A stretch of DNA of 64,000 nucleotides from a virus (IMGVR_UViG_2687453522_000001); one strand, 5' to 3'. Counted from the first letter of the stretch, positions 31,234 to 32,796 are shown. Made by a program: numbers and translations. Notes: generated by a model not told the origin, from the sequence alone.

Positions 31234-31400
31234 GCGCGAAAGACATTGCAGCTATTGCGGAAAAGAGCTGTTCGGCGGGGCAATTAAACGCCCGTGAGAG
31301 TCTGAAATAACCGCAAGCCGGAGATCAGCACCGGTCATCACAACACAACAGGTTGTACTGCACCCATTTTGTTGGACGATGAAATGGAATAGCCCCTAAT

Positions 31401-31922
31401 ATGTCAAAGCCAAAATACCCTTTTGAAAAGCGCCTTGAAGTCGTGAATCACTACTTCACAACTGATGATGGTTACAGGATCATCTCGGCACGTTTTGGTG
31501 TCCCCCGAACCCAGGTCAGGACATGGGTTGCCCTCTATGAAAAACATGGAGAAAAAGGTTTAATTCCCAAACCTAAAGGCGTTAGTGCTGATCCAGAGTT
31601 GCGTATTAAGGTCGTGAAAGCTGTGATCGAGCAGCACATGTCCCTTAATCAGGCTGCTGCTCACTTTATGCTTGCTGGTAGTGGTTCTGTAGCCAGGTGG
31701 CTGAAGGTCTATGAAGAGCGCGGAGAAGCTGGTTTACGCGCGCTCAAGATTGGCACCAAAAGAAACATTGCAATATCAGTTGATCCAGAAAAAGCGGCAT
31801 CAGCATTGGAGCTGTCAAAAGACCGACGCATTGAGGATCTTGAAAGGCAAGTTCGATTTCTTGAAACGCGGCTTATGTATCTAAAAAAGCTGAAAGCCTT
31901 AGCTCATCCCACGAAAAAGTGA
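31401..31922 (+). CDS. insJ: IS150 transposase OrfA (HTH DNA-binding)
   Basis: 173-aa ORF starting MSKPKYPFEKRLEVVNHYFTTDDGYR; AAAAAAG slippery site near its 3' end. Confidence 0.9.
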   Translation: MSKPKYPFEKRLEVVNHYFTTDDGYRIISARFGVPRTQVRTWVALYEKHGEKGLIPKPKGVSADPELRIKVVKAVIEQHMSLNQAAAHFMLAGSGSVARWLKVYEERGEAGLRALKIGTKRNIAISVDPEKAASALELSKDRRIEDLERQVRFLETRLMYLKKLKALAHPTKK

Positions 31923-32770
31923 AAGTACTCAACGAGCTAAGGCAGTTTTATCCTCTTGATGAGCTTCTCAGGGCTGCGGAGATACCGCGCAGTACGTTTT
32001 ATTATCATCTAAAGGCTCTCAGCAAGCCTGACAAGTATGCGGACGTTAAAAAGCGTATTAGTGAGATTTATCACGAGAATAGAGGCCGATACGGATACCG
32101 TAGGGTAACGCTGTCTCTTCATCGAGAAGGGAAACAGATTAACCATAAAGCTGTTCAGCGCCTGATGGGAACCCTCTCACTTAAAGCAGCGATTAAGGTC
32201 AAGCGATACCGCTCTTACAGAGGAGAGGTAGGGCAAACCGCCCCTAATGTTCTCCAAAGAGATTTCAAGGCTACGCGGCCAAACGAGAAGTGGGTTACCG
32301 ATGTTACTGAATTTGCAGTCAATGGGCGCAAGCTGTATTTGTCTCCAGTAATAGATCTCTTCAACAACGAAGTTATTTCTTACAGCCTTTCGGAAAGACC
32401 AGTGATGAACATGGTTGAGAATATGCTCGATCAGGCATTCAAAAAGCTTAATCCTCACGAGCATCCTGTTCTGCACTCTGACCAGGGATGGCAGTATCGT
32501 ATGAGAAGATATCAAAATATCCTTAAAGAACATGGTATTAAACAAAGCATGTCCAGAAAAGGCAATTGTCTGGATAATGCTGTGGTGGAGTGTTTCTTTG
32601 GAACCTTAAAGTCGGAGTGTTTTTATCTTGATGAGTTCAGTAATATAAGCGAACTGAAGGATGCTGTTACGGAATATATTGAATACTACAACAGCAGAAG
32701 AATTAGCCTGAAATTAAAAGGTCTGACTCCAATTGAATATCGGAATCAGACCTATATGCCTCGTGTTTAA
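31919..32770 (+). CDS. insK: IS150 transposase OrfB (DDE catalytic domain), expressed by -1 frameshift with OrfA
   Basis: 283-aa ORF in the -1 frame relative to OrfA with rve/DDE-type sequence (WVTDVTEF...HSDQGWQY...[15 protein letters not shown]). Confidence 0.9.
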
Positions 32771-32796
32771 CTGTCCAACTTTTTGGGGTCAGTACA

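Follow-up and report, generated by a model that had tools for sequence, protein, structure and literature searches.

The window considered here, i.e. the whole analysed stretch of 64,000 nucleotides from a P1-like (Punavirus) genome, harbours an insertion sequence, IS150, placed within a repeat element between tRNA genes and the downstream part of the ban operon. This locus raises the questions how and when the element arrived, whether it destroyed a gene or changed the expression of its neighbours, and what kind of repeat it interrupted. A sequence-only reading had proposed a recent insertion that could alter the transcription of downstream genes. Our analysis makes it very likely that an IS150 of the host transposed into the ban leader of this phage-plasmid, into the linker that separates the units M1 and M2 of a repeat array, and that the units as well as the genes stayed intact; the event was probably near-neutral.

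IS150 in the leader of the ban operon

The first 24 kb of the window are approximately 97% identical to P1, while in the region of the insertion its closest kin are RCS47 and vB_EcoM-813R1. An ORF for Dmt of 754 aa ends at 30298. The + strand order is Pban, a region called 'dicF-like' in P1, repeat unit M0, tRNA-Asn, tRNA-Thr and the units M1, M2, M3 and M4, followed by a 78-aa membrane-protein ORF, a 275-aa SPFH/Band-7 ORF, tRNA(CAT) and ban. The features framing the insertion are:

30289..30316, + strand: C1 operator Oban(ab), overlapping the Pban promoters at the start of the ban operon (base-for-base identical to the annotated P1 operator)
30974..31127, + strand: tRNA-Asn(GTT) and tRNA-Thr(TGT), upstream of IS150 (tRNA and Rfam scans)
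33502..34546, + strand: ORFs of the 78-aa membrane protein and the 275-aa SPFH/Band-7 lipoprotein, downstream of IS150 (ORF list, Pfam, PHROG)
34574..34649, + strand: tRNA with CAT anticodon, tRNA-Ile2 in the P1 annotation, downstream of IS150 (tRNA scan, P1 record)
34930..36300, + strand: ban, DnaB-type helicase, intact, the final gene of the operon (ORF compared with the P1 record)

The element has the orientation of the operon and follows Pban at a distance of 1.06 kb, with ban starting 2.1 kb further downstream, and the insertion site is the long non-coding leader of the C1-controlled ban operon. The P1 genes tciA-tciB-tciC are replaced by the genes of the 78-aa membrane protein (phrog_1130) and the 275-aa SPFH/Band-7 lipoprotein (phrog_200), the latter being annotated as 'putative serine protease' in RCS47; genes of Stx2-converting and P88-type prophages match the DNA of this cassette (33502-34546) with about 86% identity. 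Furthermore, the 5' part of the 'dicF-like' region (~30378-30420, + strand) is wholly different from P1 and RCS47, and its 3' part is conserved together with a strong terminator-like hairpin found by consensus scan at 30479-30508, which from the sequence looks like the swap of an sRNA seed region. An Rfam scan (E-value up to 1) gave no match to the DicF family in the 'dicF-like' region, and our literature search on P1 ban, DicF or plp returned nothing relevant.

The inserted element and its target duplication have the following anatomy:

31351..31353, no strand: left copy of the target-site duplication GGT (flank comparison, empty site)
31354..32796, + strand, 1443 bp: complete copy of IS150, in ban operon orientation (0/1443 differences from IS150 of K-12 MG1655)
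31354..31377, + strand: IRL, left terminal inverted repeat, beginning with TGTACTG (end comparison; single copy in the window)
31401..31922, + strand: orfA (insJ), 173 aa, HTH DNA-binding (ORF list; Pfam HTH_28 4e-23, HTH_Tnp_1)
31883..31889, + strand: programmed -1 frameshift site A-AAA-AAG (AAAAAAG), in the computed phase cuA-AAA-AAG of orfA
31919..32770, + strand, -1 frame relative to orfA: orfB (insK), 283 aa, rve DDE core (Pfam rve 3e-29, rve_2, HTH_21)
32773..32796, + strand: IRR, right terminal inverted repeat, finishing with CAGTACA (end comparison)
32797..32799, no strand: right copy of the duplication GGT, at the same time the first 3 nt of the M2 hairpin (flank comparison)

The claim of a complete 1443-bp IS150 carrying both transposase ORFs and the A-AAA-AAG site proved exact. 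The copy aligns without any mismatch to the 'insertion sequence:IS150' annotated in K-12 MG1655 (NC_000913.3 3720633-3722075), both ORFs are open without signs of degeneration and the heptamer is in phase, so that a -1 slip at AAAAAAG is computed to give an uninterrupted OrfAB transposase of 456 aa. The element starts with TGTACTGCACCC and finishes with GGGGTCAGTACA; its TG...CA ends are imperfect repeats, identical at the 7/7 outermost bases and agreeing in ~18 of the 24 positions, and no second IS150 end was found within the window. Hence length, ends, the two open ORFs, the heptamer and the duplication are all those of IS150 (IS3 family, IS150 group), and the copy is complete and apparently functional. 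Compared with the K-12 element (insJ/insK), to which it corresponds in sequence, ORFs, frameshift site, ends and 3-bp duplication, only the location differs, a site in a P1-like phage-plasmid at which IS150 was not seen in the searched collections.

IS elements in otherwise intact genomes have precedents in the P1 family, namely the IS1 of wild-type P1, which we take to be located in the res/mod region, and the IS5 of P1 mod749::IS5; the P1 reference record AF234172 is itself such an IS5 insertion mutant. The present case differs by the IS family and by its position in the ban operon leader rather than in the res/mod region.

Empty site, age and route of the insertion

IS150 duplicates 3 bp of its target, occasionally 4 bp. 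Three identical flanking bases would occur by chance in 1/64 of cases, but the duplication can be considered genuine, because relatives carry the exact empty site with a single GGT. Phage RCS47 shows this site as ...CATCACAACACAACAGGTAAGGGCATTCTCC..., and in alignment its sequence continues without a gap from the left flank of the window into the right one. For the wider comparison an empty site of 400 nt was reconstructed, comprising 200 nt from the left, one GGT and 200 nt from the right. A total of 238 plasmids from PLSDB and 225 RefSeq records of E. coli cover at least 80% of it; among the matches listed the top records were all 100% identical across the full 400 nt. Thus, the expectation that removal of IS150 and one GGT would rejoin the repeat element is borne out by RCS47 and many P1-like plasmids with 100% identity, and the proposed comparison with P1-like genomes lacking the IS yields the empty site in RCS47 and in hundreds of plasmids and E. 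coli records.

The occupied site, in contrast, did not recur. When 400 nt spanning the left junction served as query, no record among phages, plasmids and E. coli RefSeq covered more than about half, and an exact 30-nt junction pattern occurred zero times in the GTDB representative genomes, IMG/VR and the JGI metagenomes. The exact empty site in relatives and the absence of the junction from all six collections together point to a recent, private and standard insertion of the IS3-family type. The recent age that had been claimed is further consistent with the 0 differences from the K-12 copy, and we regard the insertion, judged by these comparisons, as very recent and private to one genome. 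An old insertion lost precisely in all other genomes was considered and judged not credible.

It might be objected that a chromosomal IS150 was mis-joined to the plasmid contig during assembly. Repeats are a classic source of mis-assembly and most E. coli carry more than one copy of IS150; 3015 RefSeq records of E. coli match the element with at least 99% identity, many of them with 100%, and genomes having any IS150 carry it in a median of 2 places. A mis-join, however, would yield neither a precise 3-bp duplication around complete IS ends nor two flanks collinear with the exact empty site, which makes an artefact extremely improbable.

The route can be reconstructed in analogy to known elements. 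The IS3 family uses copy-out/paste-in transposition with a frameshifted OrfAB, and for IS150 the mechanism with 3-bp duplications, including an example of such a duplication, as well as its activity in the LTEE are described in PMC11708052, which for IS150 frameshifting refers to Vogele et al. (1991). Accordingly to this scheme, OrfAB would have been produced by -1 frameshifting, a circular intermediate would have been copied out and pasted in after staggered cleavage of a 3-bp target, thereby duplicating GGT, and IS150 would have moved from the E. coli host, the presumed donor, into the resident P1-like phage-plasmid. Transposition activity, donor replicon and timing of this particular copy are deduced from sequence identity. 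The landing site is the M1/M2 linker within the non-coding leader of the C1-repressed operon, where all predicted structured units and real genes were left intact.

The interrupted repeat array and the ORFs annotated above it

The 'repeat element' noticed at the insertion site is real and part of a larger structure. The sequence ACAGGTAAGRGYATT occurs 4 times in the window compared to 0.33 expected occurrences, and it belongs to a tandem modular array of five units (M0-M4) on the + strand, which spans 30689-33476 with the IS excluded:

30689..30775, + strand: M0 hairpin, upstream of the tRNAs (repeat search, folding)
31128..31345, + strand: M1, hairpin A at 31129-31215 and scaffold domain B at 31210-31345, untouched by the IS (repeat search, folding)
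31346..31353, + strand: left remnant of M2, consisting of the outer-stem strand ACAACA and GGT (empty-site alignment, folding)
32797..32910, + strand: remainder of M2, hairpin GGTAAGGGCATTC...GAGTGCTCTTACC and a short domain B, GTTGTGA...TCACAAC (folding)
32994..33186, + strand: M3, hairpin A at 32994-33093 and domain B at 33085-33186 (repeat search, folding)
33273..33476, + strand: M4, whose domain B at 33346-33470 is a sub-threshold Rfam match to STnc100, followed by a T-run (Rfam, folding)

A unit is built from a very stable 'hairpin A' and a following 'domain B' with a long-range closing helix. The stems of hairpin A, e.g. CACAAC-A-GGTAAGGG / CCCTTACC-GTTGTG, reach folding z-scores of -3.6 to -5.2. 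Domain B is closed by GUUGUGRUG/CAYCACAAC, in which changes from copy to copy are compensated (GAUG/CAUC, GGUG/CACC, GCGGUG/CACCGC) and G-U pairs are compatible with + strand RNA only; in M1, for example, GTTGTGATGA (31210-31219) is predicted to pair with TCATCACAAC (31336-31345). IS150 sits in the linker exactly between the closing strand of M1 and the hairpin of M2. Because GGT was duplicated, both the hairpin of 13 bp and the short domain B of M2 are predicted to fold also in the presence of the IS, and the insertion cost the M2 stem only an outer extension of 5-6 bp.

The content of the array varies among relatives. P1 (L002 2325-2450) contains a hybrid unit in which the M1 hairpin is fused to the M2 tail (window 31128-31353 and 32797-32860) and therefore has exactly one unit fewer than the window and RCS47; by its sequence P1 would have lost this unit through recombination between repeats. 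Likewise, P7 is without M1 and SJ46 without M3. Since these phages are each one unit short, the modules seem individually dispensable, and because the insertion hit a linker within such an array, it was probably near-neutral. The separation of M1 and M2 by 1.4 kb could nevertheless affect the processing of the leader RNA.

Module hairpins were also considered as tRNAs and rejected, because ARAGORN and Rfam RF00005 call only three canonical tRNAs in the window. The M1 hairpin A holds a T-arm-like GGGTTCGAATCCC without a cloverleaf. In D6 and P7, a real tRNA-Ser(TGA) follows directly after a module closing strand, at the place where the window has hairpin A. This gene is called by ARAGORN in P7 (AF503408, L005 1575-1661) and is unannotated in the GenBank record; in D6 it is annotated on the wrong strand. 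Structured RNAs of this kind resemble, by description, the species 1 and 2 RNAs of T4 (rnaC/rnaD), i.e. stable non-tRNA RNAs which are co-transcribed with the phage tRNA cluster; both are found amid phage tRNA genes on one transcript.

The same region carries two minus-strand ORFs, plp and upl, in the annotations of P1 and RCS47, which lie directly above the module array:

32800..33117, - strand: nominal N-terminal part of 'plp' in RCS47 numbering (coordinate mapping); the C-terminal part would be 31252-31353
32800-33309 and 31252-31353, - strand in the window: span of plp/upl, corresponding to L001 2451-3062 and L002 2295-2864 (P1 and RCS47 annotations)

According to the sequence-only reading, the insertion separates tRNA-Asn/Thr from upl/plp and tRNA(CAT). 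This stands for the tRNAs, with tRNA-Asn/Thr upstream and tRNA(CAT) downstream of IS150, but not for plp and upl, which run on the minus strand over the array, so that the insertion falls inside 'plp'; the + strand ORFs that were meant are probably those of the 78-aa membrane protein and the SPFH protein. It could then be argued that IS150 knocks out a real gene, plp, encoding a putative lipoprotein. In RCS47 coordinates the insertion point is indeed within plp, at about codon 106 of 139, and once the IS is removed in silico, plp and upl agree with the RCS47 ORFs at 100% and 98.4% identity, respectively. Against this, neither ORF has a match in Pfam, plp belongs to no PHROG family and upl matches solely P1-family copies of itself. 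In Ro157c2YLVW the plp frame is interrupted by in-frame stops and by an indel, in SJ46 it has lost its N-terminus, and for upl no match was obtained in D6, P7 or SJ46. In P7, which was annotated by the laboratory of P1, neither plp nor upl was called, and among the RefSeq records listed PGAP has no annotation at the site. Moreover, plp would start with TTG and encode a Cys/Gly/Ser-rich product, and in this region RNA structure is seen on the + strand, including compensatory changes and G-U pairs. A knock-out of plp is therefore very unlikely. The missing family, the broken frame, the absence of a PGAP call and the + strand RNA structure in its place speak against 'plp' as a gene, and plp and upl, rejected here as genuine genes, are probably spurious ORF calls.

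With the structured units and genes intact, the sole likely effect would be that 1.4 kb of foreign sequence lowers the read-through from Pban to the SPFH gene, tRNA(CAT) and ban, and an altered downstream transcription, as initially suggested, is plausible from the arrangement. In the consensus scans, the + strand of IS150 contained no terminator-like site, and no site resembling a promoter was seen across the right junction of the element; hence, a confident prediction of polarity or of activation is not possible. An adaptive explanation would assume that the insertion was selected, because it lowers, or via outward transcription raises, the expression of SPFH, tRNA(CAT) and Ban to the benefit of the phage-plasmid or the host. 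IS150 lies between Pban (30289-30316) and every downstream member of the operon in the same orientation, and IS150 insertions changing the expression of neighbouring genes are common in experimental evolution. However, selection would have to be reconciled with a single private occurrence that does not recur in hundreds of related plasmids, with the lack of a + strand terminator-like site in the IS and of a promoter-like site at its right end in the consensus scans, and with the dispensability of ban in dnaB+ hosts. We consider it unlikely and prefer the near-neutral transposition into the M1/M2 linker.

A phage RNA scaffold and its possible distant kinship to STnc100 and PasD

The modules find counterparts beyond the P1 family. 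STnc100 and PasD are Hfq-associated prophage sRNAs, for which a 2026 preprint proposed common ancestry. Against STnc100 (RF02076), the M4 domain B reaches 37.8 bits (window) and 38.3 bits (RCS47), both below the gathering score of 47, and the match covers only the model positions 31-147 of 206, so that the threshold of the full model is not reached. Apart from the three tRNAs and this sub-threshold match, a permissive Rfam scan gave hits to miRNA, tmRNA, YrlA and plastid families that were far below the gathering scores and dismissed as chance; M1-M3 stayed below the gathering score of every family. M4 shares with STnc100/PasD the frame YGGUGAAU-hairpin ... CCGG-hairpin-CACC, and, as PasD1 does in E2348/69, it neighbours DUF3927/TerB-type or lysis genes in temperate phages. 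In E2348/69 the PasD1 locus has the GGUGAAU-hairpin frame beside a DUF3927 (TciB-like) gene, and in a MAFFT alignment of M1, M3 and M4 with this locus the shared GGTGAAT frame was the sole informative stretch. In contrast to STnc100/PasD, the modules are tandem and lie within a tRNA operon, and a tail of seed plus terminator is possibly present in M4 only. The interior of M4 (CAUUUCUCCUUGU) is similar to the seed region of PasD1 in EPEC E2348/69. In that genome (NC_011601.1 1060300-1060698, minus strand; L130 1001-1399), the strand opposite to PasD1, an experimentally validated sRNA, carries a 132-aa 'hypothetical protein' called by PGAP, which is the same type of call as plp over the P1 modules.

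A search of IMG/VR with the 5' frame, GTTGYGRTGAATGC...hairpin, retrieved at least 120 contigs, and among the matches listed many are 30-60 kb long. Pieces of the modules also exist with 94-98% identity in chromosomal prophages (lambdoid, CPS-53-like); the M1 domain B is situated downstream of a LexA-family repressor gene beside yfdP, yfdQ and yfdR in one of them (L007), and in a lambdoid prophage (L008) the Q antiterminator and the holin flank the M2 hairpin. In the instances compared (window 31210-31345 and 33085-33186; viral loci L010-L129), the 5' and 3' frames are conserved, whereas the 30-120 nt between them are unrelated. The loop GCUGA of hairpin 1 is complementary to the loop UCAGC of hairpin 3, also in the variants GUCGA/UCGAC and ACUGA/UCAGU, which makes a kissing interaction between the two hairpins possible in the structural model. 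Across 46 distinct frame pairs from related sequences, 93.6% of the cells pair compared to 26-52% when the partners are slid, and 9/24 pairs show two-sided changes compared to 3.1 +/- 1.3 in shuffles, of which 0/500 reach the observed value; these figures should be read in the light of a search pattern that fixed most of the 5' frame and of a structure derived from the same related sequences. At this motif, 0/18 sampled viral loci reach the gathering score of any Rfam family. Taken by its sequence, we assign the scaffold as widespread in temperate phages and as a putative distant relative of STnc100/PasD.

These data allow a broader interpretation, to which we give about even weight: the repeat hit by IS150 would be a unit of an undescribed, widespread class of structured phage RNAs, distantly akin to STnc100/PasD, which has been misannotated as Plp/Upl for 20 years. 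Each unit would consist of a tRNA-sized hairpin and a following domain with a 9-10-bp closing helix (GUUGUGGUG/CACCACAAC), in which the hairpins 1 and 3 enclose a hypervariable insert of 30-120 nt, and in P1-like phages the units would be arrayed in tandem with tRNA genes within the C1-controlled ban leader. If true, the modules are perhaps a modular platform that presents variable regulatory or decoy sequences.

The IS150 insertion itself, the outcome of ordinary transposition, puts a known element at a site that is new but otherwise unremarkable. It adds one example of host IS traffic into phage-plasmids, serves as a handy strain marker and represents a natural 'insertion mutant' for asking whether transcription from Pban reaches ban across the leader of 4.6 kb. 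The annotation should be corrected as well, since this is an insertion into the ban leader, plp and upl are probably not genes, and the genes downstream encode a membrane and an SPFH protein. Moreover, the locus points to a conserved, unannotated RNA scaffold that is common to P1-like and lambdoid phages, which is more interesting than the insertion that drew attention to it.
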